This document shows positions 852 to 57,190 of a DNA stretch of 64,000 nt, one piece after another. The translations under genes and the position numbers were made by a program. Below the pieces are notes generated by a model. That model did not search any database. It had not been told where the DNA came from and saw nothing but the letters and a program-made list of their open reading frames with translations. The stretch is taken from contig OZ253507.1 of assembly GCA_965262245.1 (NCBI GenBank), positions 5,319,728-5,383,727 on the forward strand. Reading direction: 5' to 3'. The stretch comes from Candidatus Marinacidobacterales bacterium. Lineage in GTDB: Bacteria > Acidobacteriota > Vicinamibacteria > Marinacidobacterales > SMYC01. Numbering within the stretch: position 1 is the stretch's first letter; each line of letters opens with the position of its first letter.

Positions 852-906
852 TGGAGCCGGCGAGAAGATTTGAACTTCCGACCTGCTGATTACGAATCAG
901 CAGCTA
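852..906 (-). pseudogene. tRNA 3' fragment (anticodon arm, T-arm, acceptor 3' strand, CCA); anticodon CGU (Thr)
   Basis: The minus strand reads TAGC-T-GCTGA-TTCGTAA-TCAGC-AGGTC-GGAAG-TTCAAAT-CTTCT-CGCCGGC-T-CCA. Upstream there is no proper D-arm and no matching 5' acceptor strand. Confidence 0.4.
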
Positions 907-1113
907 TGCTTTTCGCCCGCGCGCTTTTCGGTCGCCGCTCGAACATCCGTCGACGCAAAACAGGCGTCGCCTCCGTCACCCTCGAGGCAGCTTCCGACCT
1001 CGAAGGGCCTCTTTGTGAACGCTCGCGAACGCGAGAGCCTCTTCGGCTTCGTCGCCGAATCGCACGACTCGGCTAGACATCTTCTGCTCGCGGACGATGA
1101 TCGAAGTCGTGAC

Positions 1114-4282: not shown

Positions 4283-5386
4283 CTACTTGAATATGGTTAG
4301 AAAAATCCCCGCCGCAATCACGGTGCCGATCACGCCGGCAAGATTGGGCCCCATGGCGAACATTAATAAGTAATTCTTCTTGTCCGCCTCGGCCCCCATC
4401 TTATGCACGACGCGAGCCGCCATCGGGACCGCCGAAACCCCGGCGGCCCCCACGAGGGGATTGATTTTGTCCTCGGTGAACAGATTCATGAGCTTCGCCA
4501 GGAGGATGCCCGTGGCGGTGCCGATCATGAAAGCGAACAAGCCGAGAAAAAAGATGAAAATGACATCGCTCCGCAAGAAAGTCTCCGCGCTCATCGTCGC
4601 GCCCACGCTGATGCCGAGAAAAATAGTAACGATGTTCATGAGCGAGTTCTGAACCGTGTCCGTCAATCGATCAACCACCTTGGACTCCCGAAAGAGATTC
4701 CCCAGCATGAACATGGAGATGAGCGCGGCCGACTGGGGCACGAGCAGCACGATGACGATGGTAGCGACGATCGGAAACAAGAGCTTTTCCAGCTGCGGCA
4801 CCTTGCGGGACTTCTTCATCCGGATCTTTCGCTCTTTTTCCGTGGTCAAAGCACGCATGATAGGCGGCTGAATGATCGGAACGAGCGCCATATACGAATA
4901 CGCCGCCACCGCGCAGGCGCCGAGGAGCTGAGGCGCTATCTGCGCCGCGAGAAAAATGGTCGTGGGACCATCCGCGCCCCCGATGATCCCGATCGTCGCC
5001 GCTTCTTTCAACGAAAAACCCATGGCGTGCGCGACAAAAAACGTCACGTAAACACCGCCCTGCGCCGCCGCCCCCAAAAAGATGAGACGAGGCTGCGAAA
5101 GAAGCGGCCCAAAATCCGTATGGGCACCAAGCCCGAGAAAGATCAGAGGCGGGATCACCTCCCACTCGATGCCGTAATGATAGAACCGCCAGAGAAGACC
5201 CTCCCCAGGCTCCATCAGATGCGTGAGCGGAAGATTCGCGACGAGGATACCAAAGCCAATGGGGAGCAAAAGGAGCGGCTCGTACTGCTTACGGATGGCC
5301 AGATAGATGAGCACCAGCCCGATGAAGCCCGTAAACACCATCCCGGGCGTTAGAGACGAAAATCCGAGCTGGTCGAGAAAAGCCAC
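4283..5386 (-). CDS. Na+-pumping decarboxylase beta subunit (integral membrane)
   Basis: A 367-aa polytopic membrane ORF of the OadB/GcdB/MmdB type (GADGPT, AMGPNLAGVIG). The start codon is GTG. Confidence 0.85.
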   Translation of the reverse strand: MAFLDQLGFSSLTPGMVFTGFIGLVLIYLAIRKQYEPLLLLPIGFGILVANLPLTHLMEPGEGLLWRFYHYGIEWEVIPPLIFLGLGAHTDFGPLLSQPRLIFLGAAAQGGVYVTFFVAHAMGFSLKEAATIGIIGGADGPTTIFLAAQIAPQLLGACAVAAYSYMALVPIIQPPIMRALTTEKERKIRMKKSRKVPQLEKLLFPIVATIVIVLLVPQSAALISMFMLGNLFRESKVVDRLTDTVQNSLMNIVTIFLGISVGATMSAETFLRSDVIFIFFLGLFAFMIGTATGILLAKLMNLFTEDKINPLVGAAGVSAVPMAARVVHKMGAEADKKNYLLMFAMGPNLAGVIGTVIAAGIFLTIFK

Positions 5387-5388
5387 GG

Positions 5389-5532
5389 TCAGTCAGACTT
5401 CTCAGTCTTGGCGGCCTTCCGGCCGACCCAATCGACCACCAAAGCATTGACCTTCATGGTGACGTAAAGGGCCGCCATGCCGGCAAAAACGCCCACCATC
5501 CCGCTGACGAACACACTGAATGCAGATTCCAC
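5389..5532 (-). CDS. Small membrane-anchor (gamma/delta, OadG/GcdD-like) subunit; missing from the ORF track because it is under 60 aa
   Basis: Hand translation gives V-ESAFSVFVSGMVGVFAGMAALYVTMKVNALVVDWVGRKAAKTEKSD-stop. The GTG start at 5530-5532 is preceded by GAGGTGAGGG. The stop lies 2 nt before the beta-subunit start. Confidence 0.55.
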   Translation of the reverse strand: MESAFSVFVSGMVGVFAGMAALYVTMKVNALVVDWVGRKAAKTEKSD

Positions 5533-5985
5533 TCGGCTGATTCCCTCACCTCGGACCAGGCCTCAACGGCCCGCGCAACCGCTTATCATGTCAGATCGGC
5601 CTGACCCCTTCAACGAGGCCGCGCACGGATCCAGGCCAGTCGCTCAGTGTCCTCGAATCGGGACGAAAATCCAAGCGAAAGCACCGATCAACCACGGAGC
5701 TTCTTTCCCCGAAGCAACCCGGATTAGTTCCTCCGTATCTGAGAAGGTGGTACTGTCTGCGCGTTCTTCTCCAACATAGACGTGCGGACTCCCAGGTGCA
5801 CCTGTATGGGTGCGATGGGAATTGGATCGTTTTTTTCGACCGCCAAAGATCCGCTTTCAGTGATGGAATGATCGTCGCGCGACGACGTAGCACCTGTCCT
5901 GTAGTAGAAGGCGAGTCACATTCATCGAACTCCGAACGGTGCACACGCTCCCCATCGGTGAACTCCCCCGGCACGCTGAGCTGTT

Positions 5986-6417
5986 ATGATTTCGCCGCTG
6001 ATGCTTCCGCCGAAGGAAAGGACGCCAATGCCTCTTACCGATCGAGTGCTTTCCTCGATTGCGAAAAGCCGCGACCTCGACCGACCCGCGATGCGCGCCC
6101 TGATGAAGGCCACCGAACTTCTTGGCTTGGCGTCCGGGCTCGAGCTCGTGAGGCTCCGCGATTCCACGGAACCCCTCCACCAAGCCTACGCACAGGCAAA
6201 GCTCGAAGCGATCCGCACATCCGGATACGTGCAGCTCTGCCAGCTCCTTTCCGAGCGTTGGGAGAAGCTCCCCGAGCATCGGCGCCCTCACTATACGCCG
6301 CACTAGCGGTTCCGTATTCTGGAGCTCAAAAAACTCCTCGGTTGGTCGCGCAAGGAGACTGCCACACGTTGTTGCGTTTCGGTGGGAACCGTCACTCGCT
6401 GGGAGCGGGAGGTGAAT
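5986..6417 (+). pseudogene. N-terminal transposase/HTH fragment with an in-frame TAG, cut off by the IS3-family left end
   Basis: The ORF 5986-6306 continues in frame after the TAG as RFRILELKKLLGWSRKETATRCCVSVGTVTRWEREVN (HTH-like). It ends exactly where the IS end TGAAGTGGGCCCC begins. Confidence 0.35.
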
Positions 6418-6495
6418 TGAAGTGGGCCCCATTTTTTAGACCAGGGGTTAAGGTGGTAAAACAAGCCTGCTCAATAAAAAAAGGAGCAGAGAAAA

Positions 6496-6783
6496 GTGAA
6501 GAAAAATCGTACGAAGCACAGCCCTGTTTTCAAGGCGAAAGTTGCATTGGCGGTACTACGCGAGCAGGAGACAGTGGCGGAACTATCCCGCCGGCACAAG
6601 GTTCACGCGAACCAGATCTACAAATGGAAGCGGCAGCTTTTGGAGAACGTCACGCGTGCTTTCGAGACCGAAGAGGTGGGCGGAGGCGATGCCTCGATGC
6701 GCGAGGCCGAACTGCTTCAGAAAATCGGGGAGCTGACGATGGAGCGCGATTTTTTATCACACGGGCTCGGTCGATTGCGATGA
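6496..6783 (+). CDS. IS3-family transposase OrfA (HTH)
   Basis: [47 protein letters not shown] is a classic IS3 OrfA. Confidence 0.85.
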
Positions 6784-7345
6784 CGCCCCGGCGGGAGTTG
6801 GTCGAACCCAACGCTCCGCTGTCGATGCGCTGGCAGTGCGAGCTGCTCGGCGTGAATCGGTCGAGCCTGTACTACGAACCTGTCGAGCCGGATGGCGAGC
6901 AACTCGCATTGATGCGTCGGATGGACGAGCTACATCTGAAGCATCCATTTTTCGGCAGCCGCATGATGACACAGACACTCAAAGCGGAGGGGTCGGCCGT
7001 CAACCGCAAGCGCGTGCAGCGTCTTATGCGCTTGATGGGGCTCGAGAGCACTGCGCCCAAGCCGAACACAAGCAAGCCAGCGCCGGAACACGCCGTATAC
7101 CCCTATCTACTGAGGAATCTGACGGTTTCTCGGATCAATCAGGTGTGGGCCGCCGACATCACATACATCCCGATGGCGCGAGGCTTCGTATACCTGGTGG
7201 CGGTCATCGATTGGTATTCGCGGCGGGTGCTCGCCTGGCGCTTGTCCAACACGTTGGAGACGACCTTCTGCGTGGAGGCTCTGAACGAAGCTGTGGCACG
7301 CTACGGTTGCCCAGAGATATTCAACACGGACCAGGGCTCTCAGTA
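6780..7345 (+). pseudogene. IS3-family transposase OrfB (rve integrase core), C-terminally truncated
   Basis: The frame reads [59 protein letters not shown]. It is embedded in the composite 601-aa track ORF. Confidence 0.8.
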
Positions 7346-7563
7346 TCGTCGAGATCACGCTCGTGCCGACGCGTCTCGGCGCGCGCCTTCTCGGTGCGTT
7401 TGGCGGCCTCGCACTGCTTCTTGCCGCGGTCGGCCTCTACGGCGTCATCGCTTATGCGGTCAGCCGCCGCACCCACGAAGTCGGCCTTCGCATGGCGCTC
7501 GGGGCCGACGCCTCGGACGTGCTGGCCATGATTCTCCGCCAAGGCATGACGCTTGCGGGCGGC
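7346..7563 (+). pseudogene. Fragment of an FtsX-type ABC permease C-terminal region
   Basis: The fragment reads [73 protein letters not shown]. It has no start and no natural end. Confidence 0.7.
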
Positions 7564-8382
7564 TTTCATGTCTTCGTTCGTGTCCGGATATTCCTGCGTG
7601 AGGCGCGCGAACACGGTGCTGACTTGCGCTTGCGCTTCCTCGACGCTCGCGCCCGGAGCGAGACGCCCTTTGACGAAGAGCCAACGTGTACCACGCCGCT
7701 CACGGCGCGTCTTGCCCGGCTCGTCAAAACTGTTCGACTGAATGCCGTTGAAGGTGAGATTCTCCACCATCGCGGTCGGCACCCAGTACTCGGGACGGAT
7801 TCCAGGAATGGTGCCCGTATAGGTTTCGGGCGCGACGCCGATGATGTTGTAGTCCACGCCGCTCAGCCGCAGCGACTTTCCGACCACATCGGGGTCCCCG
7901 CCGAGGCGGCGCTGCCAGAGGCCGTGGCTCAAGACCATCACGGGATGCGTGCCTTCGGTCGCGTCTTCCTCTGAATGGAAGCCGCGTCCGAGGACAGGCC
8001 GCACCCCGAGCACCTCGAAATAGTTCGCGGTGACCACCTCGCCCGTGACGACGTCAGAGCGGCCTTCGGTCGTCACGATGCCGCGGACCATGGCATGCGC
8101 GGTGAGCCCTTCGAAGGCCTCGGTCTCCTTTCGGATATCGAGAAAGTCCGGATAGGACGACGTCAGATGCGGGAATTCTTCGCTGGGGCTCGAGTAGATC
8201 TCGACGAGGCGGCCCGGGTCTTCGATGGGAAGCTTCTTGAGAAGGATCGCGTTCACGACGCTGAAGATGGTCGTATTCAGACCGATCCCGAGGGCGAGCG
8301 AAAGCGCCGCCACGAGGGTAAATCCCGGCTGACGCACGAGAGTCCGGAACGCGTATCGAATATCGCCTGCGAGATCTTGCAC
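7564..8382 (-). pseudogene. N-terminal ~273 aa of an ADOP-type (MacB/FtsX-like) permease, truncated
   Basis: The fragment runs MQDLAGDIRYAFRTLVRQPGFTLVAALSLALGIGLNTTIFSVVNAILL.. through ..[15 protein letters not shown]. The rest of the track ORF is read-through of the plus-strand fragment. Confidence 0.7.
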
Positions 8383-8487
8383 TTTTTCTCCGTGTTTCGT
8401 TGGGTTACCTGCGAACGGCTGCCCGGGGCGTATCTCGACGCCTCTTCAGTGTTTTACGGATTTGCGGCGCCGATGGTTCCCGGAAAC

Positions 8488-8889
8488 TCAATCGGCGGCG
8501 TCGGCTTGGATCTCCACTTTTAGCTCGGGGTAAGCCAGGCGGGCCACGCCGATCAACGTGTTGGGAGGCATGACGTTCGCGGCGGCGAGCGGTCCCGCGA
8601 AGGCGTCCCAGTTCTCGATCATCTCGTCCACGTCGGTCGTATATACCGTGACGCGAGTGAGGTTCTCGTAGCCCATCCCCGCGGCCTTCAACACGGCTTC
8701 GAGATTATTCATGGCCGCCGTAATCTGGCCTCTCAAATCGTCCGGATGTTGGACCTTGCCGTCGGCGTCAATTGAGGTCTGGCCGGCGCAGACGAGTTGG
8801 CGGCTCACGCCTTCGAGCACTTCGCCTTGATTGAATTGATACTGTTTGGACCACTCCCAGCGATTCACAGCCATACGTTTCATCGACAC
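8488..8889 (-). CDS. RidA/YjgF-family protein
   Basis: A 133-aa ORF with a YjgF-like pattern (QTSIDADGKV.., NLEAVLKAAG, TVYTTDV, ELKVEI). Confidence 0.7.
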   Translation of the reverse strand: MSMKRMAVNRWEWSKQYQFNQGEVLEGVSRQLVCAGQTSIDADGKVQHPDDLRGQITAAMNNLEAVLKAAGMGYENLTRVTVYTTDVDEMIENWDAFAGPLAAANVMPPNTLIGVARLAYPELKVEIQADAAD

Positions 8890-8952
8890 AACCTCCTTTG
8901 TTCAGACGGCAAGGCTGGCATATGATCCCACGGTAGGACTTGGGAGGCCAGC

Positions 8953-9693
8953 ATGCTCGTCAGAGCGCTCGCAATCATAGCGCTGATTTCGCTCGTGGCC
9001 GAGGGAGGACAATGGGAGCGCCGCCGCCGGCGCGAACCGCCACCGGTCGAGCTCACACCCACCATCGTGCCGAATTTCTCCTTCGCACGTGTGAGGTTTC
9101 ATTCCTTTCGTGAAGGCAGACGCCCCGGCTGGTCTCACGATTATCCGCGCGCCGAGCGCAACCTCCTGCGCATTCTGTCCGAGGTCACCGATGTCTACAC
9201 GGAGCCCGCGGCGCACACGATCGTCCCGCTCGACAGCCCGGATCTCATGCTCCATCCGCTGGCCTATTTCAGCGAGCCCGGCACTTGGGCGATCACGCCC
9301 GACGAAACCACGAATTTTCGCAACTATCTCGCGAAAGGCGGATTTGCCATCTTCGACGACTTCGACGGACCTTGGGATTGGGAGAACTTCGAAGCGTGCA
9401 TGGCAAGCGTCTTACCCGGACGCCACTTCGAGAGGCTCGAGCTCGAGGACCCTGTGTTCCAGAGCTTCTTCCATATCAAGACCCTCGAAATGCCGGCCGG
9501 CTATGGCTCCTATGAAGCGCCCTCGTTCTGGGGACTTCGAGACGATGACGGCCGGCTAATGGTCGTCGCCAATTTCAATAATGATATCGGGGAGTACTGG
9601 GAGTGGTCCGAGCACGGCTACTACCCAATCGAGCTCACAAACGAAGGGTACAAACTCGGAGTCAATTACGTCATCTATTCCCTGACCCACTGA
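8953..9693 (+). CDS. DUF4159-like secreted/membrane protein
   Basis: An N-terminal hydrophobic segment is followed by ERNLLRILSEVT, LHPLAYFSEPG and GGFAIFDDFDGPWDWENF, which recalls DUF4159. Confidence 0.55.
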   Translation: MLVRALAIIALISLVAEGGQWERRRRREPPPVELTPTIVPNFSFARVRFHSFREGRRPGWSHDYPRAERNLLRILSEVTDVYTEPAAHTIVPLDSPDLMLHPLAYFSEPGTWAITPDETTNFRNYLAKGGFAIFDDFDGPWDWENFEACMASVLPGRHFERLELEDPVFQSFFHIKTLEMPAGYGSYEAPSFWGLRDDDGRLMVVANFNNDIGEYWEWSEHGYYPIELTNEGYKLGVNYVIYSLTH

Positions 9694-9723
9694 CCCATTG
9701 AGACCATTCAGAAACACCGCGGG

Positions 9724-10380
9724 ATGTTCCAGCGCGATTACATACTCAGGCTCGTCGAGCAGCTCGCCAAAACCTTGGGCGCCGTCCTCACGCTCCGAAA
9801 AGCCAAGCGCTACAACGAGGCCGAAGAGGCCATCACCGACGCCGCCAAGAACCTCGTGGGGCTCGACGTCCGCACGTTGCACGCGCTACCGCTCGACCAG
9901 ATCGTCGCGCTCTTCAGCCCGGGCGGAGTCCTAGATCCAGGGAAGAGTCTCGTCGTCGCCGAGCTTCTCTACGAACATGGCGAGCTCAAAACGCTCGAGG
10001 GGGAGGACGGTGTCGCCTACCAATCGAGGGTGCGCGCGCTCGGGCTCTATCTCGAAGTCTCTGGGCGTGAAAGCCTCGAGCGCATTCCCGACGCGGACCG
10101 CTATCTCGAGAAGATCGAGACGTTGCTCGGCGAGCTGGCCCCCTACGGGCCCGCGTCGGAGATCCAAAAACGGCTCATCTGGCACTATGAGCGCGAAGGC
10201 GCCTACGCGGATGCCGAGGACACGTTGTTCGAGCTCATCGACGCGGGACACGCCGAGCTCGTCCCCGAGGGGATCGAGCTCTACGAGCGGTTGCTCGCGA
10301 AGCCCGACGATGCACTCGACCGCGGCAAGCTGCCCCGCGAAGAAGTGGAGGAGGGGCTGGCTCAGTTGAGAGCACGGTAG
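9724..10380 (+). CDS. Hypothetical helical-repeat protein
   Basis: A clean 218-aa ORF with host-like codon usage. No motif was recognised. Confidence 0.5.
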   Translation: MFQRDYILRLVEQLAKTLGAVLTLRKAKRYNEAEEAITDAAKNLVGLDVRTLHALPLDQIVALFSPGGVLDPGKSLVVAELLYEHGELKTLEGEDGVAYQSRVRALGLYLEVSGRESLERIPDADRYLEKIETLLGELAPYGPASEIQKRLIWHYEREGAYADAEDTLFELIDAGHAELVPEGIELYERLLAKPDDALDRGKLPREEVEEGLAQLRAR

Positions 10381-10441: not shown

Positions 10442-10740
10442 TTGCCGCAGTTCCGAGAAGCGATACCCTGCGAGCACGATTACCGCTTCGTGATCGTCGA
10501 CCGAGATACCAAGTTCCCCGAAGATTTACAGAAGTCCGTGCGAGCGATGGGCGTCAGGGTGTTGAGGACGCCCCCATTCGCGCCGCAAGCGAATTCTTAT
10601 TGCGAGAAACTGATCGGCAGCACCCACCGAGAGTATTTGGACTTCCTCATCCCGCTCTCGGAAAATTACCTTCGTCGAGTTTTGGCCGATTGGCGTGACT
10701 ACTACAATCAAGCGAGGACGCATTCCGCATTCATCATTCA
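10442..10740 (+). pseudogene. C-terminal fragment of an rve-type (integrase core) transposase
   Basis: DRDTKFPEDL..TPPFAPQANSYCEKLIGSTHREYLDFLIPLSENYLRRVLADWRDYYNQARTHS matches the DDE-integrase C-terminus. No N-terminal part is present. Confidence 0.65.
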
Positions 10741-10748
10741 TCATTCAT
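10728..10748 (+). repeat. Three tandem copies of the heptamer CATTCAT inside the transposase fragment
   Basis: cattcatcattcatcattcat is read directly. It lies within the conserved RTHS..SLG motif and expands it in frame. Confidence 0.8.
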
Positions 10749-11051
10749 CACTGGGACCCAATGTCCCTGCGCCGGCGAGCGATCTTCCCGTCGATCTTGC
10801 TTCGCCGAGGCACTCTATTCCAACTGGATTCCGCATCGTTTCCTTGCCGATTCTCGGCGCGCTCCATCACGATTATCGGTTGGCACGCGCTGCCTGACCG
10901 AGCGAAGACCTCAGACGCAAGGGCTTTCACCGTCGTTGGAGGCGTCTGCTCTCGCGCTCGCTTTCCACGGTCTCAACGCCGTGCAAGCTTCGCGAACTCG
11001 ACACGTGCGTGCTGACGGATTTCGTCGGAGCGGCCCCATCAGCGAACTCCG

Positions 11052-11493: not shown

Positions 11494-12134
11494 TCATTTC
11501 GCCCAGAGAAAACCGTCCTTGTTCCAACCCTCGAGGTCCACGTAGCACCCGCTTCCTTCGCCAAATCCTCCCACCGCGGCGTAGTTGGAATGTCCCGCGG
11601 CGCAAACGGGATAATCGGCAAACGTGTAGCCGGACCGGTTGGCCGGGCACTCGAAAGCCAGATTCTTGTCATTGTCCATGGACCAGTTGAAGCTGTTCGT
11701 CTTGGCGGAGGTCCAAGTGTTTTCGGCGTTCTTCACAAACGATCTCTTCGCGACGCCGCATTCGTAGCGCCAGTAACCCACCGTGTTCAGCAAATTGATC
11801 ACCGCATCGCTCAACTTCGCCGCGGCGCTAACGTCGGAAACGTCTCCAACGGCGGCCGGCTGGTCCGCGTGAAAGATCGACCCGTTTTTGATGTTGATCA
11901 CCCTAGTCCAGCCGCCCGCGTCATTGGTCATATCGCAGAAGACCGAAATAAGCCCGAGCGGACCGGCCGCACCGTCGGGATCAATCTGATAAACCCCGTC
12001 GGGAGTAGTGGGTTTCGAGACCAGGAGAGCCGCGCAACTGATGGGAGTCGACGGTGTGGCCGTCCCTTTGGGGGCATCGCTCGAGGGCGTGACCGTGACG
12101 CGCCTCACGGTGGCGCAGTTGCCCGTTTTCCCTT
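11494..12134 (-). pseudogene. C-terminal part (about 210 codons) of a fibrinogen-related-domain (FReD-like) protein split by the IS1595-family transposon
   Basis: ISCAALLVSKPTTPDGVYQIDPDG..ISVFCDMTNDAGGWTRV resembles the FReD signature C..L....G.Y.I.P...VYCDM..DGGGWTV. The upstream end runs into IR-L. Confidence 0.6.
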
Positions 12135-12158
12135 GGGGATTATATACAATAGTAGCGA
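12135..12158. repeat. IR-L of the IS1595-family transposon
   Basis: It is an exact reverse complement of 15862-15885. Confidence 0.95.
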
Positions 12159-12168
12159 GATCCGGCAC

Positions 12169-12363
12169 TCAGCGCCGGCCCCTCGGCTTGTCAACCCACC
12201 GGATGTTGACGGGCCGAAGGAGTGCTCGAGCGAGCTGCTCTAGCGTTGTGCCCTTGGGAACGTCTGGGAGAATCGCTTCCGTCCCTTCAAGCTCGGCTCG
12301 CGTCGGCTGGTAGGTCGAGCGGACTAGCTCCACTGTTTTTGGCTTGGTTTTTTTGCTGCTCAT
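12169..12363 (-). CDS. Small basic hypothetical protein (64 aa) inside the transposon
   Basis: The ORF reads MSSKKTKPKTVELVRSTYQPTRAELEGTEAILPDVPKGTTLEQLARALLRPVNIRWVDKPRGRR. It is co-directional with the RM gene and lies between it and IR-L. By eye it is GC-rich, unlike the RM gene. Confidence 0.45.
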   Translation of the reverse strand: MSSKKTKPKTVELVRSTYQPTRAELEGTEAILPDVPKGTTLEQLARALLRPVNIRWVDKPRGRR

Positions 12364-12389
12364 TTGTTTATCAGACCCCCTGCTCTTCT

Positions 12390-14852
12390 CTATTTTCCTC
12401 CTTCAACCACTTCTAACTGTTCTTCATAAGACGGAAGAGACAATCTGGCGTGTTTGAGGAATCCACTCTTATTCCACGTTGCGTTATCTGAGTTAGACGC
12501 ATACTCTCGGAACATTCCCTCTTGAGTTTTGGCAACCCATTTCAGAGAAACTTGGTAGCCGTTGTCCTTCTTCCTAGTCAGGACATACGCATCGTCTGTC
12601 ATGGCATAATTTCCGTCCGGGAGATGATTGATACAGCCTGCTTTTCCCTTTCTCACAATGTGAATGCCTTCGTCTGAAATAACTTTGATCTTACGGTCGG
12701 CATTTTTAGGATCTTGGCAACGGTGGATACAAGTTGTGTTGCCGAGGTCTACGCTTCCTGTAAGCAGACGGTATCTTTTCTCTCCCTTGTGGAAGAGCAG
12801 CGAGTACAAATACTCCTCCGTCAGCCCGGAATTGCCTCCAGAAATCTCAAACAATTTTGATACCGGGAGATCCTTTACCTGGTATTCCTTGTAGTCGTAT
12901 AGCTTGGAATCTCTGTGGAGGTTCCAAGCTCGCAAATAGTACTCTGGGAGTAAAGTCAGGTATTTGTCAGAAAGAACCTTATCGATTGGTAGGTGGCACC
13001 CCTTCCTCATCTTCACCCTAGATCCCTTTTCATCTATCCATTCTGTCCCGCCGGATTCAGAGTCATCAAACTTGAGCCATCTTTCTTCTAGAATTCCAGG
13101 CATTTCCTCGCCGTCGGTGGTAACCCAACCAGAGATCTCGTCGTGAAGCCATCCATTGCGGTTGTTTCTGAGCTTGGTTGGAAAACGCTTATCGGAATTT
13201 GCTAGTCCATCATTGTCAATGATGTACATCCACACAGTGTTCTTCTGTGTGCGGGCAGGATTATCGCTACGCTTAGTCAAGAAGAGAGCGTATGTCTTCT
13301 CTTTCGTATAGGGGGCGAAAGCAAACTTCGGTAAAGAAATGACAGCAGTTATGTTGCACGTTTCGAGTAGTTCCTTTCGGAACGCCGCAAACGACGGGTT
13401 TTCAAGCACTCCGTCCGGCTGTATCACGCACGCTTGCCCTCCAACCTTAAGCAACTTACGAATCCTACAAAGAAAAGCGATCTCAGTTCTTATGGTAGAC
13501 ACCGCTGAGGTGTCCGCACGTATCGTGCCTGTTCCATACGGAGGATTGGTGATGACGTAATCAAATGTATTGATCGGGAACGGATGCTTCTTCGCGTGCA
13601 GAGAATTCGCGTCTTTCATGTTGGTGTGCCCGTCGCCAACAAGAAACATGTTCAGCCGTGTTCGTGAGATATTATCTTCTCTTACGTCAACACCATAAAA
13701 ACAACGGTGCTCCAGGAATGCGCGAGCCTCATTTTCATTGGCTTTGTTTCTATCGTAGTAATTCTTCAGAACCTTGTAGCCTTCAGTGAGAAAGCCCCCA
13801 GTCCCACACGCGGGGTCCAAGACCGTGAATTCCCTGTTGGGATTCCAGAACTGCTCCTTCAGAAGAAGCAGCTTGGCAAAAAGGTGAGCATAATGCCTAC
13901 GTGTGAAGTACTCTCCGAACTCCTTCTTTTCCTTGGAGGATGCAAACATTTCATAGACGGACCCGAAGAGGTCAAACCCGGCTCCATGAAGTGGCCTCAT
14001 TGAATTGGTGATTGCGTAAATGCGTCGAACGTCCTCTTTGGGAACTAGGGGATTCAGGCTTCCGATAATTGCACTTCTCAGAGTGTCAATGAGATTCTTG
14101 AACTCCTTAAAGTCTGTTTCTTCTGACAGTCGGCGCACATACGCTTCTATGTTTGCAACAAGCTTCTCGTCACTCTCATCTTCGCATTCTGACCAGTAGA
14201 TCTTACGTTTGTCCTTTCGGCTTTCCAAGATGGCTTTTTCTTCGTAAAACTCCAGCGATATGAAGCCGATAGTGAAATCTATCTTCTGCTGATTGTTTTT
14301 GAAATTGATTCCCCTGTATACGGCAGCTAATTCCCACAGTTTTTTGTTGAAGATCGCTTCGGATACCGTAGATATCGAATCCACATTGGTGTAGATGTTC
14401 GTAAGCTGCGGACTCTTCGTAAGGCGATGCTTGATCAACCTCAGAATGTCGATAGTCTGAAACTCACGAATCGGGTTCTTATTAAGTTTTATTTCCTTCA
14501 GCGTCTTGGCGTTATAGAACACAGACATCTTGCAGTTCGTGACGATAAAATATGGAAGCTTCAGCTTCGGTGCTTTCTGTTTTCCCTGCTTGAGCGCATC
14601 CTTCCAGTCTCTATCGTCAAACGAACAATCATCTTTGACTTCTGCGTAAGCAACTAGGTTTTCGATGAACTGTCCGTCATTGGAACCGTCGAATTCGAAT
14701 TCTGATATCAGGAGGTCTGGACGCGTCGATCCTGTATAATTATAAAATGTTGCATCATTAACGATCTGGCGAAAGGGAATGCTCAACTGTCCGACAAGAA
14801 CCTCATGTATCAGCCTAGAGACAGTTAGAGCTTCGTGCTTGCGTGACCTCAC
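12390..14852 (-). CDS. Fused restriction endonuclease / N6-adenine DNA methyltransferase / specificity polypeptide (Type IIG-like RM enzyme)
   Basis: The N-terminus has a PD-(D/E)XK motif (RPDLLISEFEF ... AYAEVKD). MTase motif I is VLDPACGTGGFL and motif IV is NPPYG (gamma order). The C-terminal ~250 aa resembles an HsdS-like TRD. The gene is visibly AT-richer than its flanks. Confidence 0.8.
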   Translation of the reverse strand: MRSRKHEALTVSRLIHEVLVGQLSIPFRQIVNDATFYNYTGSTRPDLLISEFEFDGSNDGQFIENLVAYAEVKDDCSFDDRDWKDALKQGKQKAPKLKLPYFIVTNCKMSVFYNAKTLKEIKLNKNPIREFQTIDILRLIKHRLTKSPQLTNIYTNVDSISTVSEAIFNKKLWELAAVYRGINFKNNQQKIDFTIGFISLEFYEEKAILESRKDKRKIYWSECEDESDEKLVANIEAYVRRLSEETDFKEFKNLIDTLRSAIIGSLNPLVPKEDVRRIYAITNSMRPLHGAGFDLFGSVYEMFASSKEKKEFGEYFTRRHYAHLFAKLLLLKEQFWNPNREFTVLDPACGTGGFLTEGYKVLKNYYDRNKANENEARAFLEHRCFYGVDVREDNISRTRLNMFLVGDGHTNMKDANSLHAKKHPFPINTFDYVITNPPYGTGTIRADTSAVSTIRTEIAFLCRIRKLLKVGGQACVIQPDGVLENPSFAAFRKELLETCNITAVISLPKFAFAPYTKEKTYALFLTKRSDNPARTQKNTVWMYIIDNDGLANSDKRFPTKLRNNRNGWLHDEISGWVTTDGEEMPGILEERWLKFDDSESGGTEWIDEKGSRVKMRKGCHLPIDKVLSDKYLTLLPEYYLRAWNLHRDSKLYDYKEYQVKDLPVSKLFEISGGNSGLTEEYLYSLLFHKGEKRYRLLTGSVDLGNTTCIHRCQDPKNADRKIKVISDEGIHIVRKGKAGCINHLPDGNYAMTDDAYVLTRKKDNGYQVSLKWVAKTQEGMFREYASNSDNATWNKSGFLKHARLSLPSYEEQLEVVEGGK

Positions 14853-15820
14853 CCCACGAGATCCTTGTAGCGAAGCTGCGCGCCTTCCATTTGGCTTGCG
14901 ACCGCCACCATTTGGTCGAGCGTATCGAGCTCTCGGATATTGTGGCGGGCGACAAACTCATCGACATATCTCTGTAAGTGCTTCGCGCTCATCTTGTGGA
15001 ACGTGCCTTTGTGCGCCCGCTTCAACATGCTCCAAAAGCTCTCGATCCCGTTCGTGTGCGCCATGCCGTTGACGTACTCCTTCACGGAGTGGCGGACGGT
15101 CTCGTGGTTCGGCAGCCCGACGTAGCCTCCGTGGTCGTCAGTATACACCTTCGCGCCAGGCTCGACGTTCTCGGCGACGAAGCCGTGTAGGGTGAGCTGG
15201 CCGGTGTCCTTGATGACCCTCGCGCTCACGCGGTTCGTCTTGCGGTCCTTCGCGCCGATTACCGCCGTCTTACCGACTGGGCCGCGCCCGGCGTTCAGCT
15301 TCTTGCAAGCGTGTTTGTTCCGCTCTTTGCCGCCGAAAAAAGTCTCGTCGATTTCGACCGGGCCACCGAACGGACCATCATCAGTGTCGAACGCCTTGCG
15401 GATGCGGTGAGCCATGAACCATGCAGATTTCTGAGTTATCGCGAGTTCGCGGTGCAACTTCATGCTCGCAACGCTTTTCAGGTTGGTCACAACTAAGTAG
15501 AGCGCAAAGAGCCAGTCCTGATAGCCGATGTTGGCCGAGTCCATGAACGTCTCGGTTTTCGCGCTGAAGTACTTACCGCAGCTACCACGCTTTACACTTT
15601 TTCGGCACCGAAACGGCATAGTCGGATGCTTGGCATCGACTTGCACGTTCTCAGAGCCGCAGCGTGGGCAGCTGATACCGTCCGGCCACCGCTGAGCGAT
15701 GAACCAGCGTTCGGCGGTTTCATCGTCGGGGAACATCCGGTAAAACTGTTTGGCCGTTATGCCTTTGCGGTGCGCTTTTCCTGGTGCGTTGCAAGCCATT
15801 GCGTTATCTCCTATGTACAA
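14849..15820 (-). CDS. IS1595-family transposase (N-terminal zinc ribbon plus ISXO2-like DDE domain)
   Basis: Motifs are CPRCGS..FRCR..CGKYFS, then DETFFGG, VYTDDHGGY and NGIESFWSMLKR. Its stop overlaps the RM gene's GTG start (GTGA at 14849-14852). Confidence 0.85.
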   Translation of the reverse strand: MYIGDNAMACNAPGKAHRKGITAKQFYRMFPDDETAERWFIAQRWPDGISCPRCGSENVQVDAKHPTMPFRCRKSVKRGSCGKYFSAKTETFMDSANIGYQDWLFALYLVVTNLKSVASMKLHRELAITQKSAWFMAHRIRKAFDTDDGPFGGPVEIDETFFGGKERNKHACKKLNAGRGPVGKTAVIGAKDRKTNRVSARVIKDTGQLTLHGFVAENVEPGAKVYTDDHGGYVGLPNHETVRHSVKEYVNGMAHTNGIESFWSMLKRAHKGTFHKMSAKHLQRYVDEFVARHNIRELDTLDQMVAVASQMEGAQLRYKDLVG

Positions 15821-15861
15821 CGCAATCTTACCAAATAGTAGCGTCTATGTCAACCTGTTTT

Positions 15862-15885
15862 TCGCTACTATTGTATATAATCCCC
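15862..15885. repeat. IR-R of the IS1595-family transposon
   Basis: It is an exact reverse complement of 12135-12158. Confidence 0.95.
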
Positions 15886-16182
15886 TTTCCCTTCGTAGAT
15901 GAAGTTCGCACGGACCACTTTCTTGGTGCGCTCGGTGATGTCCCTATAGACGTGCTGGACGACGCCGGTGTGTTTCGTCAGACCGTCGGAGCTCGCTTCG
16001 CCGGAGCCGAGGCTCATGGTCTCGTACTCCATGGGTTCGCCCTCCTCATCCCAGAAGATCTGGAGCCTCTGCGTTCCGCCAGGGACGCCGACGTAGCTGT
16101 AGAAAAGCCCAACGGCGTTCCCATTCACGTAGCCCGACTTCAGTCCCTCAATATTGACGTTCCGCTCCATCCGCAACACCAT
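15886..16182 (-). pseudogene. N-terminal part (99 codons) of the gene split by the IS1595-family transposon
   Basis: The ORF ..VVRANFIYEGK runs into IR-R. It joins in frame to 12126-11494 once the element and one TSD copy are removed. Confidence 0.6.
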
Positions 16183-16279: not shown

Positions 16280-16495
16280 ATGTCTAGCAGAAAAACCAGC
16301 GTAGTGATAGATGAAGATCTTCTGGCTGACGTGCAGACCGTGCTAGAGACCAAGACGGTAAAGGACACGATCGAGCACGCATTCCTGGAGATCCTTCGGG
16401 CCAAGGCGAGGGAGGAAGAGGTGAAAGCGTTGTCGACCTTGAGCGGGATGGACCTCGATGACGACGACGTCATGGCCGGGGCCTGGCGGAAGTGA
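16280..16495 (+). CDS. vapB: VapB-type antitoxin
   Basis: A 71-aa ORF (MSSRKTSVVIDEDLLADVQTVLETKTVKDTIEHAFLEIL) that overlaps the downstream PIN gene by 4 nt. Confidence 0.8.
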   Translation: MSSRKTSVVIDEDLLADVQTVLETKTVKDTIEHAFLEILRAKAREEEVKALSTLSGMDLDDDDVMAGAWRK

Positions 16496-16908
16496 CGGCG
16501 CGATATCTCATCGACAAAAGCGCTCTCGCTCGGATGACTCACGAGTCGGTGAAGCAGCGGTTGGCCCCAATTATCGAGGCCGGAGAGGCAGCGACTTGCG
16601 CCTTTGTCGATCTGGAGGTGCTGTTCAGCGCGCGAAACCACGACGAGCACGTCAAGATACGACGGCGGCGGGAGTTAGCCTACGAGCGGGTCCCGTTAGC
16701 GGAGGACGTCTTCGCACGAGCTGTCGACGTTCAAGCCGAGCTCGCCCGATCCGGTCGCCACCGCGTACCCATCGCCGATCTACTCATCGCCGCCGCATCC
16801 GAGTCAGCGTCTTTGACCATCCTTCACTACGATAGTGACTTCGACACCATTGTCAGCGTGACAGGCCAATCGGCGCAGTGGGTCGTTCCGCAAGGAAGCG
16901 TCCCGTGA
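16492..16908 (+). CDS. vapC: VapC PIN-domain toxin
   Basis: A 138-aa ORF with PIN acidic residues (LIDKS.., DLEVL.., IADLLIAA.., HYDSDFD). Confidence 0.85.
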   Translation: MTARYLIDKSALARMTHESVKQRLAPIIEAGEAATCAFVDLEVLFSARNHDEHVKIRRRRELAYERVPLAEDVFARAVDVQAELARSGRHRVPIADLLIAAASESASLTILHYDSDFDTIVSVTGQSAQWVVPQGSVP

Positions 16909-55705: not shown

Positions 55706-55780
55706 GCTCCTGTGGTGTAGGGGTTAGCATGCGAGACTTTCAATCTTGTGATCCGGGTTCGAGTCCCGGCAGGAGTACCA
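55706..55780 (+). tRNA. tRNA-Glu (UUC)
   Basis: Hand-folded cloverleaf: acceptor GCTCCTG/CAGGAGT, anticodon arm CGAGA-CTTTCAA-TCTTG, T-arm CCGGG-TTCGAGT-CCCGG, A73, encoded CCA. Confidence 0.85.
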
Positions 55781-55789
55781 AAGTGAAGA

Positions 55790-55876
55790 GGAAGGGTACC
55801 CAAGTGGTAAGGGGCCGGTTTGCTAAACCGGTAGGTCGTTCGCGGCGCGAGGGTTCAAATCCCTCTCCTTCCTCCA
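55790..55876 (+). tRNA. tRNA-Ser (GCU), class II
   Basis: Hand fold: acceptor GGAAGGG/TCCTTCC, anticodon arm CCGGT-TTGCTAA-ACCGG, long variable arm, T-arm GAGGG-TTCAAAT-CCCTC, encoded CCA. Confidence 0.85.
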
Positions 55877-55881
55877 TTCGT

Positions 55882-55958
55882 AGGCGATTAGCTCAGTTGC
55901 GAAGAGCGCCTGTTTTACACGCAGGAGGCCGAAGGTTCGACTCCTTCATCGCCTACCA
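55882..55958 (+). tRNA. tRNA-Val (UAC)
   Basis: Hand fold: acceptor AGGCGAT/ATCGCCT, anticodon arm CCTGT-TTTACAC-GCAGG, T-arm GAAGG-TTCGACT-CCTTC, A73, CCA. The D-loop reads AGTTGCGAA, so GG is not in its usual place. Confidence 0.8.
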
Positions 55959-55966
55959 CTTTCTTT

Positions 55967-56042
55967 CCGGCATGGGGTGGCTGGTTGTGACCGCACGTCT
56001 GATAAGCGTGTAAGCATCGTTCGATTCGATGATGCCGGACCA
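55967..56042 (+). tRNA. tRNA-Ile (GAU)
   Basis: Hand fold: acceptor CCGGCAT/ATGCCGG (C1-G72), anticodon arm CACGT-CTGATAA-GCGTG, T-arm CATCG-TTCGATT-CGATG, A73, CCA. Confidence 0.8.
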
Positions 56043-56064
56043 GATTGACGGGCGTTGGTGTAGT

Positions 56065-56139
56065 AGCGGAGTGGCGCAATGGTAGCGCGTCGGGCTCATA
56101 ACTCGAAGGCCGAGAGTTCGAATCTCTCCTCCGCCACCA
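56065..56139 (+). tRNA. tRNA-Met (CAU) with an A1xC72 mismatch
   Basis: Hand fold: acceptor AGCGGAG/CTCCGCC, D-arm GCGC-AATGGTA-GCGC, anticodon arm TCGGG-CTCATAA-CTCGA, T-arm GAGAG-TTCGAAT-CTCTC, A73, CCA. Confidence 0.8.
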
Positions 56140-56205
56140 AACTTGAAGAGAGAAAAAGAAGGAGTAGGCAGATGGAATCCGAAGACGGTTCGTCATCCTC
56201 GATGA

Positions 56206-56292
56206 GGAGGGTGCCGCTGAATGGCCGGCAACCGGTCTCGAAAACCGGGGTGGCTCGCAAGGCCAAGGGTTCGATTCCTTCACCCTCCTCCA
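56206..56292 (+). tRNA. tRNA-Ser (CGA), class II
   Basis: Hand fold: acceptor GGAGGGT/ACCCTCC, anticodon arm CCGGT-CTCGAAA-ACCGG, long variable arm, T-loop TTCGATT, CCA. Confidence 0.8.
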
Positions 56293-56359
56293 GCCTTCAC
56301 CCGATGCAGTTCACGTGGGCTTCGGCTAGGTAAACCCTGGTAGTTGCGCTGCGAAGGCT

Positions 56360-56396
56360 GTCCGCCGTAGCGCGAAGCGCGAAGGCGGACTTTATT
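56360..56396 (+). terminator. Terminator-like hairpin inside the tRNA array
   Basis: The hairpin is GTCCGCC-GTAGCGCGAAGCGCGAA-GGCGGAC followed by TTTATT. Confidence 0.4.
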
Positions 56397-56487
56397 GTAG
56401 CGGCTGCGGAGACGGTGGACCGCGCCGGGTTGTAGCCCGGGATTCGCGAGAGCGGCGTTGGGGGTTCGAATCCTCCCCGCTACACCA
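56397..56487 (+). tRNA. tRNA-Tyr (GUA), class II, irregular anticodon arm
   Basis: Hand fold: acceptor GTAGCGG/CCGCTAC, D-arm GCGG-AGACGGTGGA-CCGC, anticodon region CCGGG-TTGTAG(C)-CC(C)GG, 18-nt variable arm, T-arm GGGGG-TTCGAAT-CCTCC, A73, CCA. Confidence 0.7.
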
Positions 56488-56493
56488 GATCGT

Positions 56494-56568
56494 GCCGGCG
56501 TGATTGCAACTGGCAGACACACTCGGCTCAAACCCGAGTTGGTGGTGGTTCGAGTCCACCCGCCGGTA
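56494..56568 (+). tRNA. tRNA-like gene with anticodon CAA (Leu by anticodon) but a short variable arm; poor D-stem, no encoded CCA
   Basis: Hand fold: acceptor GCCGGCG/CGCCGGT, anticodon arm CTCGG-CTCAAAC-CCGAG, 5-nt variable loop TTGGT, T-arm GGTGG-TTCGAGT-CCACC, A73, followed by TCA. Confidence 0.5.
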
Positions 56569-56587
56569 TCAAGTTTTAGTTTCAAGT

Positions 56588-56663
56588 GCTTCGGTAGCTC
56601 AGCAGGTAGAGCGTCCCGTTGAAGCCGGGAAGGGCGTTCGTTCGATTCGGACTCGGAGCACCA
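56588..56663 (+). tRNA. tRNA-Phe (GAA)
   Basis: Hand fold: acceptor GCTTCGG/TCGGAGC, D-arm GCTC-AGCAGGTA-GAGC, anticodon arm TCCCG-TTGAAGC-CGGGA, T-arm GTTCG-TTCGATT-CGGAC, A73, CCA. Confidence 0.85.
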
Positions 56664-56669
56664 ATTAGC

Positions 56670-56745
56670 GCGACCGTGGTGTTCAACGGCAGCATGCGAG
56701 CCTTCCAAGCTTGGGGTGCGGGTTCGAGTCCCGCCGGTCGCTCCA
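56670..56745 (+). tRNA. tRNA-Gly (UCC)
   Basis: Hand fold: acceptor GCGACCG/CGGTCGC, anticodon arm CGAGC-CTTCCAA-GCTTG, T-arm GCGGG-TTCGAGT-CCCGC, U73, CCA. Confidence 0.85.
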
Positions 56746-56755
56746 AATAGTACGT

Positions 56756-56832
56756 AGCTCCGTAGCCCAACTGGCAGAGGCAACGGACCGAGATTCCGTC
56801 CAGTGGGAGTTCGAATCTCCCCGGAGCTACCA
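56756..56832 (+). tRNA. Class-I tRNA with anticodon GAG (Leu by anticodon), C33, A73
   Basis: Hand fold: acceptor AGCTCCG/CGGAGCT, D-arm GCCC-AACTGGCAG-AGGC, anticodon arm ACGGA-CCGAGAT-TCCGT, 5-nt variable loop CCAGT, T-arm GGGAG-TTCGAAT-CTCCC, CCA. Confidence 0.7.
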
Positions 56833-56856
56833 GTTCGAGGAGAACGAAGATGATTT

Positions 56857-56931
56857 ACGCCCGTAGTTCAACGGCAGAATGGCTGGCTTTTAACCAGTTC
56901 GATGGAGGTTCGAATCCTCCCGGGCGTACCA
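56857..56931 (+). tRNA. tRNA-Lys (UUU)
   Basis: Hand fold: acceptor ACGCCCG/CGGGCGT, D-arm GTTC-AACGGCA-GAAT, anticodon arm GCTGG-CTTTTAA-CCAGT, T-arm GGAGG-TTCGAAT-CCTCC, A73, CCA. Confidence 0.85.
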
Positions 56932-56944
56932 ACGGCTTCTCGCT

Positions 56945-57014
56945 TCCGGGAGTTCTGGGACGGCAGGGTGTCCAAAGCCCAAGCAGCAGGGTTCGATTCC
57001 TTGTCCCGGTGCCA
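56945..57014 (+). tRNA. Short (70 nt) tRNA-Trp (CCA)-like gene with a reduced D-arm
   Basis: Hand fold: acceptor TCCGGGA/TCCCGGT (U1xU72), only ~11 nt where the D-arm should be, anticodon region (A)GGGT-GTCCAAA-GCCC(A), T-arm CAGGG-TTCGATT-CCTTG, G73, CCA. Confidence 0.45.
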
Positions 57015-57020
57015 ATCATC

Positions 57021-57096
57021 AGCTCGGTAGTCCAACGGCAGAGACAGCGGGCTTAGACCCCGTCTAGTGAGAGTTCGAATCTCTCCCGAGCTACCA
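57021..57096 (+). tRNA. Canonical class-I cloverleaf with anticodon UAG (Leu by anticodon), A73
   Basis: Hand fold: acceptor AGCTCGG/CCGAGCT, D-arm GTCC-AACGGCAG-AGAC, anticodon arm GCGGG-CTTAGAC-CCCGT, 5-nt variable loop CTAGT, T-arm GAGAG-TTCGAAT-CTCTC, CCA. Confidence 0.8.
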
Positions 57097-57114
57097 AATC
57101 AAGATCTCATTTGA

Positions 57115-57190
57115 GCGTCAGTGGTCTAACCGATAAGGCACTTGGCTTCGAACCAAGGCGTTGCGGGTTCAACTCCTGCCTGGCGCTCCA
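57115..57190 (+). tRNA. tRNA-Arg (UCG)
   Basis: Hand fold: acceptor GCGTCAG/CTGGCGC, D-arm GTCT-AACCGATA-AGGC (no GG in the D-loop), anticodon arm CTTGG-CTTCGAA-CCAAG, T-arm GCGGG-TTCAACT-CCTGC, U73, CCA. Confidence 0.8.

Follow-up and report, generated by a model that had tools for sequence, protein, structure and literature searches.

The 64,000-nucleotide stretch of DNA analysed here (the window: positions 5,319,728 to 5,383,727 of contig OZ253507.1, assembly GCA_965262245.1, from Candidatus Marinacidobacterales bacterium, Acidobacteriota) raises the question of how a gene for a restriction-modification-like enzyme came to lie inside the gene of a fibrinogen-like domain protein. The answer that we favour, with a probability of roughly 0.85, is that window positions 12135-15885 are an autonomous, recently transposed 'transporter IS' (insertion sequence) of the IS1595 family, with GGnnATTAT-type ends and a restriction-modification passenger. 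An intact IS1595-family element of 3,751 bp, with three co-directional genes on the minus strand, occupies these positions. It entered the fibrinogen-like gene in one piece, with the 8-bp duplication of a staggered cut. Its transposase retains, on alignment, every conserved catalytic and zinc-binding residue, and an identical relative at two sites shows that a whole transposase-plus-enzyme unit is mobile. The features of the locus, in window coordinates, are as follows.

11494-12134, minus strand: 3' part of the target gene (fibrinogen-like domain protein), which joins in frame with 15894-16182
12127-12134: target site duplication copy at the ORF64-side end, TTTCCCTT; the same 8-mer is found at 15886-15893
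12135-12158: IRR, the transposase-distal terminal inverted repeat, GGGGATTATATACAATAGTAGCGA; 24/24 complementary to 15862-15885
12169-12363, minus strand: ORF64, a small backbone protein of 64 aa, conserved in the IS lineage
12390-14852, minus strand: cargo gene for the 820-aa restriction-modification-like enzyme, GTG start
14849-15799, minus strand: IS1595-family transposase, 316 aa from ATG, with an alternative TTG start at 15820 (323 aa)
15825-15853, minus strand: promoter-like candidate TTGACA-17-TAAGAT with TG, in the gap that separates the inverted repeat from the transposase start
15862-15885: IRL, the transposase-proximal terminal inverted repeat, exact reverse complement of GGGGATTATATACAATAGTAGCGA
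15886-15893: second target site duplication copy, TTTCCCTT, abutting IRL
15894-16182, minus strand: 5' part of the target gene, with its ATG at 16182

Boundaries of the element

A preliminary description of this locus, made from the sequence alone, had reported perfect 24-bp inverted repeats, an 8-bp direct repeat outside both ends, three co-directional genes between the repeats and a GTGA overlap between the transposase stop codon and the start of the restriction-modification gene. All of these were found at the positions listed above, the TGA and GTG codons forming a 4-bp gene overlap. The only matches to GGGGATTATATACAATAGTAGCGA in the window, with up to three mismatches allowed, were the two terminal repeats, and 100 dinucleotide-preserving shuffles gave an expectation of 0 matches by chance. 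The ends of the element read GGGGATTAT. IRR begins GGGGATTATATAC, the same start as in approximately 45 related elements; the exact 24-bp repeat was not found in the five relative loci examined, and a degenerate 19-mer of it matched only loci L006 and L040 among 96 loci scanned. The backbone amounts to approximately 1.3 kb and the cargo to two thirds of the length. When composite transposon structure was considered, one transposase gene, one inverted-repeat pair and no second IS copy were found in the window.

The ISNwi1 subgroup of the IS1595 family, as tabulated in ISfinder, is characterised by GGnnATTAT ends, a DDEK motif and passenger-bearing members of 1.75-4.75 kb. The window element shares these ends and the DDEK motif and falls within the size range at 3,751 bp; on these described features it is a probable member of the subgroup.

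The insertion site and its empty counterpart

Removal of 12135-15893 fuses ...FIYEGK with TGNCATV... and yields an open reading frame (ORF) of 309 codons starting at the ATG at 16182, which reproduces the rebuilt gene of the preliminary description. The product has weak Pfam matches to Fibrinogen_C and COLFI. A protein search identified P0121, which is uninterrupted, 309 aa long and 99% identical to the rebuilt product; it is encoded on L086 (ENA ERZ25071132), a metagenomic contig of 126 kb. On both sides of the element, L086 and the window are collinear: identity is 99.7% over window 23551-15886 and 99.6% over window 12134-7558. The eight bases at L086 10290-10297 align to both copies of TTTCCCTT, an 8-mer that is present once at this site of L086, and the site reads ...gttgcccgTTTTCCCTTcgtagatg.... 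A search for an empty site had been proposed in the preliminary description, and a genuine one exists in this near-identical strain: the element plus one 8-mer is the exact difference at the site between strains otherwise 0.3-0.4% apart. At 90% identity, the target protein falls in a cluster of 21 members, with intact forms of 305-309 aa on many long contigs, and for the 10.2-Mb source contig, which also encodes the enzyme of the window, only a 224-aa fragment of the target protein is recorded. The window insertion is real and recent.

The guanine-plus-cytosine (GC) content of the cargo gene is 46%, compared with 58-61% in the transposase gene and the flanks, a step that might be expected if an IS contig and a restriction-gene contig had been chimerically joined inside the host gene during assembly. 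Against this, the junctions are exactly symmetrical, removal of the element restores a sequence found base for base in another assembly, and the transposase and cargo genes meet in a 4-bp overlap. The gene order and the GC step were moreover assembled independently in at least five other samples. An assembly chimera, the objection foreseen in the preliminary description, is very unlikely because the empty site is present in a near-identical strain and the target protein is intact on other contigs; together with the recurrence of the architecture in independent assemblies, this leaves the artefact hardly credible.

At the far end of the collinear region, a 224-bp segment is inverted in L086 14874-16345 relative to window positions ~7335-7558, and synteny stops at window 7558. 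This break is another strain-specific rearrangement.

The transposase

The window transposase scored above the cut-offs for Pfam DDE_Tnp_IS1595 (136.7 bits against 27; E 8e-40), Pfam Zn_ribbon_IS1595 (28.4 bits against 25.4; E 1.6e-6) and NCBIfam transpos_IS1595 (182.6 bits against 75). In an alignment of the window copy with 63 non-identical relatives (64 sequences), conservation of at least 95% was seen at positions that include C44, C47, C65, C74, D151, D221, E253, K260 and R261, all of which are present in the window copy. The putative catalytic residues lie in the contexts EIDET (D151), YTDD (D221) and NGIESFW (E253), with K260 seven residues past E253. The DDE triad, proposed in the preliminary description as a test of its reading, is therefore in place, as are K260 and the four zinc-ribbon cysteines. 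The promoter-like candidate upstream of the gene is a consensus match only, and such sites were no commoner than in shuffled sequence.

Exact look-up of the transposase, in its 316-aa and 323-aa forms, returned no contig on record. Transposases on PLSDB plasmids, annotated 'IS1595 family transposase', were at most 40% identical. The 10.2-Mb source contig encodes at least two further IS1595 transposases of this clade, P0158 (66% identical to that of the window) and P0203 (65%), and the P0203 cluster is present on several long contigs.

The passenger enzyme

Residues 294-549 of the cargo protein form an N6-adenine methylase core of HsdM type (Pfam N6_Mtase, 1.2e-34), and the best sequence matches of the protein in the PDB were Type I M subunits (3.5e-22) and RM.BsaXI (1.8e-12). 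Motifs were assessed in an alignment of 38 homologs with identities down to 58%. Invariant residues included, in methylase motif I (DPACGTGG), D346 and A348-G353 and, in motif IV (NPPYG), N436-P437-P438 and G440, next to a nearly invariant Y439. R44-P45-D46 and E71-x-K73, which form a putative PD-ExK nuclease motif, were also invariant. In an AlphaFold (AF2) model with a predicted local distance difference test (pLDDT) score of 80, D46 and E71/K73 are placed on neighbouring strands of an alpha/beta domain. A Foldseek search with the full model returned HsdM proteins and, over the full length, BsaXI, DrdV and BpuSI, with at most 22% identity to any solved enzyme. The top matches of a separate N-terminal model (pLDDT 63) were an HsdR fragment, BpuSI, VRR-NUC, Hjc and RecU.

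Residues 561-820 are the least conserved part of the enzyme, with 63-74% identity compared with approximately 80% elsewhere. A large group of homologs of approximately 670 aa (P0042-P0120) is approximately 70% identical over the first 78% of the protein and lacks the C-terminal ~180 residues, and some homologs of approximately 880 aa bear a Pfam Methylase_S domain in the C-terminal region. The enzyme family thus appears to come with fused and probably separate specificity modules. Neither hsdS nor hsdR was found inside the window element or beside enzyme homologs, so the protein was not classed as part of a Type I system. Membership of BREX or MADS was also considered and rejected, because the scores fell far under the cut-offs (BREX-1 PglX, 50.2 bits against 500; MAD2, for MADS Mad2, 94.9 bits against 720). 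The 820-aa protein is read here as a single-chain Type IIG-like enzyme in which, judging from motifs and models, the methylase is firm, the nuclease probable and the specificity part plausible.

Every significant family or structure match of the enzyme is a methylase (HsdM, CamA, M.BseCI), and its homologs are annotated at source as 'HsdM family methyltransferase' or 'N-6 DNA methylase'. The element might accordingly be a genuine transporter IS whose passenger is a methyltransferase only, orphan/epigenetic or anti-restriction in role, with an N-terminus that binds DNA or is a dead nuclease and with no part in defence. A sequence profile built on the N-terminal 165 residues had no match in the PDB, and none of the fold matches of this region was significant, the best being the HsdR fragment at E = 0.14. 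Among the related elements described below, L022 and L057 seem to hold a methylase alone, and L053 a methylase and a YafQ-like toxin. On the other side, R44-P45-D46 and E71-x-K73 are invariant in the 38 homologs and lie on consecutive beta strands, as in PD-(D/E)xK nucleases; the top fold matches of the N-terminus, though weak, are all PD-(D/E)xK nucleases; and the full-length structural alignments extend to the single-chain enzymes BpuSI, DrdV and BsaXI. We regard a methylase without nuclease function as unlikely, though deserving of real weight.

Relatives of the enzyme are numerous, with 2,325 at E <= 1e-5 in the protein collection, almost all of them metagenomic. Exact look-up of the 820-aa protein returned no contig on record, and a metagenome scan with it returned one locus only. 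No close relative was found on PLSDB plasmids, where the best matches were at most 33% identical and covered the methylase core only. Viral contigs held two distant homologs, which had no adjoining transposase.

The same enzyme in other elements

Besides the window element, four distinct elements carry the enzyme (L005, L088, L089 and L090/L091/L092), and each has an IS1595 transposase directly upstream of it and an ORF of 43-63 aa downstream. L005, L088, L090 and L092 are each bounded by a pair of inverted repeats of their own, 22-23 bp long, perfect or nearly so and starting GGGA or GGGG, and their 8-bp duplications are AAATAAAT (L005), CAATATTT (L088), AAACCAAT (L090) and CTTTGTAG (L092). 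The preliminary description held that the restriction-modification gene is internal to the element and not merely adjacent to it, and in these four loci the repeats likewise enclose both the transposase and the same enzyme. On this point, as on the DDE triad and the chimera objection, the reading given in the preliminary description is supported. The elements at L090 3941-7687 and L092 3941-7687 are 3,747 bp long and show 0 mismatches to each other, with unrelated flanks and different duplications. Identical units at unrelated sites indicate that the transposase-plus-enzyme unit transposes or transfers in one piece, and they are direct evidence that this sister element moved recently.

The transposases of these elements are 41-60% identical to one another, compared with 70-80% for the enzymes. 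L005 has the most divergent transposase (41-45% identical to all others), yet its enzyme is the closest to that of the window (80%). In every element the GC content of the enzyme gene lies 7-18 points under that of the transposase and flanks. In L003 and L004, only the last ~80 transposase codons remain ahead of the enzyme gene, and the enzyme is found without a transposase in L001, beside a RepA_C gene, and in L093.

Two side observations concern these loci. At L003 5691-5924, and also in L004, a 77-aa ORF that immediately precedes an enzyme copy of 80% identity combines a HicA-toxin match with the C-terminal end of an IS1595 transposase, and most of the transposase gene seems to have given way to a HicAB pair. 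At L088 1938-3725, a GmrSD-type (DUF262/DUF1524) gene that restricts modified DNA immediately precedes the site where the element inserted, and the L088 copy thus sits among defence genes.

The window copy could itself be a stranded, immobile fossil, and its association with a restriction gene a one-off capture without significance. One copy is visible in 64 kb, no identical transposase is recorded elsewhere, and the closest relative of its backbone (L094, described below) is itself damaged by a nested IS256-type element. The repeats at 24/24, the duplication at 8/8 and the three intact ORFs speak against such a fossil, as does an insertion that is polymorphic between strains 0.3-0.4% apart. 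The sister element with the same cargo occupies two sites with zero mismatches, the same cargo is found in five diverged backbones, and the cargo of the clade is mostly restriction-related. A fossil is in our judgement improbable.

ORF64 and the passenger slot

Homologs of ORF64 share the motif YQP[TS][KR]AELE...RPV.[VI]R. They adjoin the same end in the cargo-less elements L021/L023 (1,342 bp) and L012-14 (1,536 bp), the latter comprising three copies with three different duplications, and also in the cargo-bearing elements L008, L042, L052 and L007. Because its homologs stand at the same end in elements with no cargo and in elements with other cargo, ORF64 is considered a part of the IS backbone and not a passenger; its GC content of 58% also matches that of the transposase gene, unlike that of the cargo. 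Of the three genes reported between the repeats, all are present, and the 64-aa ORF is to be classed as a conserved backbone component, not as cargo. An assignment of ORF64 to DUF2497/PopZ was rejected, with scores of 17.7 and 18.3 bits that fall short of the cut-offs of 27 and 125 (Pfam/NCBIfam). The slot that holds the passenger is bounded by the stop codon of the transposase gene and by ORF64, and relatives keep other restriction systems, or nothing, in that place.

The nearest transposase on record, P0143, is 90% identical to that of the window and is encoded in L094. At the DNA level, the stretch that starts with the left repeat and takes in most of the transposase gene is 87.7% identical between L094 and the window, and the stretch that starts with ORF64 and takes in the right repeat is 82.3% identical; the ORF64 copy of L094 is approximately 80% identical as judged by eye. 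The L094 element (6916-9730) has its own duplication, CAACATAT, and no restriction gene. A nested IS256-type element at 7895-9282 severs the tail of its transposase; this tail is not restored behind the nested element, so the stretch that lay there has been lost in an adjacent deletion. The ORF that follows the nested element was compared with the enzyme as a possible remnant of it, and blastp, tblastn and Pfam showed no similarity. The sequence there ends ...LIPLPPLRVQEKLILAMD..., which resembles the tail of an HsdS-type specificity domain, a likeness that no search backs.

Survey of related elements and their cargo

A scan of the GTDB genome collection, whose representatives do not include the source genome, with the window transposase gave at least 589 relatives. 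From these, 80 loci were retained, and the best match was 62% identical. Many of the hosts are marine or sponge-associated metagenome-assembled genomes, and two are archaeal. Element bounds were determined with scripts seeking GGG-initiated inverted repeats, and cargo was typed by Pfam and PADLOC. Approximately 45 relatives were bounded in this way, with lengths of 1,117-5,424 bp, ends of the form GGG(G/A)ATTAT and, mostly, perfect 8-bp duplications. The 8-bp duplication invoked in the preliminary description as a trait of the IS1595 family was thus seen with 8 of 8 bases matching at the window element and as 36 distinct duplications among relatives. These 36 sequences have an A+T content of 80%, and their positions 2, 3, 6 and 7 are nearly always A or T (nWWnnWWn); they come from hosts of mostly 50-69% GC, which suggests that AT-rich 8-mers are the target preference of this IS lineage.

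Besides the 820-aa enzyme, the following cargo was identified.

L008 and L065: N6_N4 methylase and BglII-type nuclease
L006: N6_N4 methylase and Eco47II-type nuclease, plus a Panacea/SocA toxin-antitoxin pair in the interval from the left end to the transposase
L076: N6_N4 methylase (gene split by a nested IS) and EcoO109I-type nuclease
L042: N6_N4 methylase and PADLOC Type II nuclease
L017: MT-A70 methylase and BglII-type nuclease
L075: C5 methylase and Type II nuclease
L071: C5 methylase, ORF without assigned function and Vsr
L037: methylase-HNH fusion
L084 and L085: methylase-Mrr fusion
L022 and L057: methylase alone
L053: methylase and YafQ-like toxin
L020 and L025: nested IS66 copies

A DNA methylase, with or without a nuclease, was present in approximately 18 of the approximately 28 distinct cargo-bearing elements, a tally made by hand in the sample of 80 loci, not a census, and with the five backbones of the 820-aa enzyme counted. 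This share is far above that expected of a random gene sample. The restriction-related cargo spans at least eight kinds, and toxin-antitoxin genes are also carried. Restriction-system cargo is common in this clade and not exceptional, and this IS group looks like a regular vehicle for such systems. L006 (element at 4882-8667) is a separate case in that its cargo lies on both sides of the transposase, with the Panacea/SocA antitoxin and a 119-aa ORF on the left-repeat side; its inverted repeats match at 22 of 22 positions and its flanking 8-mers differ.

Some points weigh against the reading of the window element as an autonomous transporter IS with a restriction-modification passenger. One copy of the element is visible within the 64-kb window. 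To the lack of significant or sequence-level relatives for the N-terminus of the enzyme is added a C-terminal region with no Pfam specificity-domain match. Among the related elements, approximately 10 distinct ones hold only unrecognisable ORFs with no evident restriction function. Cleavage, methylation and transposition by the window copy are predicted activities, and the transcription of the passenger and its benefit to host and element, set out next, likewise belong to what we infer.

A model for mobility and persistence

In the proposed mechanism, which follows established behaviour of DDE transposases and of the IS1595 family, the Zn-ribbon/DDE transposase would bind the 24-bp ends, cut with an 8-bp stagger and insert the element into AT-rich 8-mers (nWWnnWWn). 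The passenger would be transcribed by read-through from the transposase promoter, as suggested by the 4-bp overlap between the genes and the failure to find an internal promoter. The enzyme, if Type IIG-like, would methylate adenine at its recognition sites in the host and cut unmethylated incoming DNA. The IS would supply the restriction gene with mobility within and between genomes, and the restriction gene could in turn benefit host defence and punish loss of the element by post-segregational killing, so that the insertion is kept. Restriction systems and toxin-antitoxin pairs may be favoured as cargo because both penalise their own loss. Passenger modules also appear to have been swapped between diverged IS backbones, because transposases and cargo have diverged unequally, a sister backbone is free of cargo and the GC step is constant; no mechanism of exchange is visible.

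A broader reading is put forward tentatively, as possible but short of probable: that this ISNwi1-like lineage of the IS1595 family is a specialised shuttle for 'addiction' modules, with a cassette-like slot, which persists through cargo that punishes its loss. At least eight kinds of restriction-modification systems, as well as toxin-antitoxin pairs, would have entered the slot in repeated events, and a few members would have a second slot between the left end and the transposase. Swaps would have occurred across backbones whose transposases are 40-60% identical. Persistence of these ISs would be favoured above all in the large genomes of uncultivated marine and sponge-associated bacteria, the source of most of them.

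Comparison with known systems

Passenger genes are an accepted feature of one category of IS1595 elements, the 'transporter ISs' (tIS) (bioRxiv 10.1101/2021.05.26.445724; PMC3129680, citing Siguier et al. 2009). The window element resembles them in its single Zn-ribbon/DDE transposase, short terminal repeats, 8-bp duplication and passenger located downstream inside the repeats; it differs in that neither of these two sources reports clade-wide restriction passengers or a small ORF at the far end. No description of restriction cargo as a clade-wide IS1595 trait was found in the literature searched, which did not cover the primary IS1595 paper, so that an earlier report is possible.

A close parallel in arrangement is a transposon-like restriction-modification unit in Neisseria gonorrhoeae NCCP11945, described by Furuta, Abe & Kobayashi 2010 (NAR 38:2428, PMC2853133). 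It is bounded by perfect inverted repeats of 26 bp and by an 8-bp duplication, which was checked against the empty site in a related genome; inside lie an S gene, a Type IIG gene that is truncated and a transposase-like gene (COG3677) deemed probably inactive. Its authors left the means of movement open, and they cite Siguier et al. 2009 among reports of IS-flanked restriction systems and solitary methylase genes. The two units share perfect repeats, an 8-bp duplication, an empty site, a Type IIG homolog and a gene with transposase motifs. The window element differs in its intact transposase and enzyme and its identified family, and such units have been seen at multiple sites.

The enzyme resembles BpuSI, the DrdV/MmeI family and RM.BsaXI in having one chain, with a putative N-terminal PD-(D/E)xK region, a helical connector, a gamma-class N6-adenine methylase (DPACGTGG, NPPYG) and a variable C-terminus. 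It differs from the MmeI and Eco57I families in that its methylase core is nearest to Type I HsdM (E 3.5e-22). The ~670-aa homologs without the C-terminal region may need a separate S subunit, like BsaXI. Tn7-like elements and composite IS-flanked restriction systems also carry a defence gene as mobile cargo; the window element, in contrast, is a minimal one-transposase vehicle without targeting machinery or a flanking IS pair. The window element is thus a new and unusually well-documented example of the known transporter IS category.

Neighbouring genes

A VapBC-like antitoxin and a PIN-domain toxin, encoded at window 16280-16908 on the plus strand, adjoin the disrupted gene and are also present at L086 9275-9903. 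A 151-aa ORF at window 10442-10897 (plus strand) resembles by eye the C-terminus of an rve-type integrase/transposase (...YCEKLIGSTHREYLD...YYNQARTHS) and is probably an IS remnant approximately 1.2 kb from the IS1595 element. Eleven transfer RNA (tRNA) genes are grouped in 1.5 kb at window 55706-57187 (plus strand), and a weak tRNA match was found at 855-920 (minus strand).

Significance

In the preliminary description, a defence gene inside a minimal IS was presented as a rarely documented way for restriction-modification systems to move. This is only partly right: passenger-bearing transporter ISs are established, the Neisseria unit had been described and restriction cargo is common in the clade. 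Restriction-modification genes are known to pass from genome to genome, but what carries them is seldom observed; here the vehicle, its ends, the duplication, the empty site and a sister insertion are all visible, which makes this a clean natural case of a one-transposase IS moving a complete defence gene. Clade-wide restriction cargo is a more interesting result than the single element, and the merit of follow-up lies, beyond this one instance, in the family-level pattern and in the uncharacterised enzyme family. The family of the 820-aa enzyme is abundant in metagenomes, has no close relative on plasmids of cultured bacteria and no characterised member, and is a candidate source of new specificities. 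Should a full census bear out the clade pattern, ISs of this kind would feed the turnover of restriction systems, and hence of the barriers to gene flow and phage, and they would offer a simple model for whether addiction modules stabilise transposable elements.

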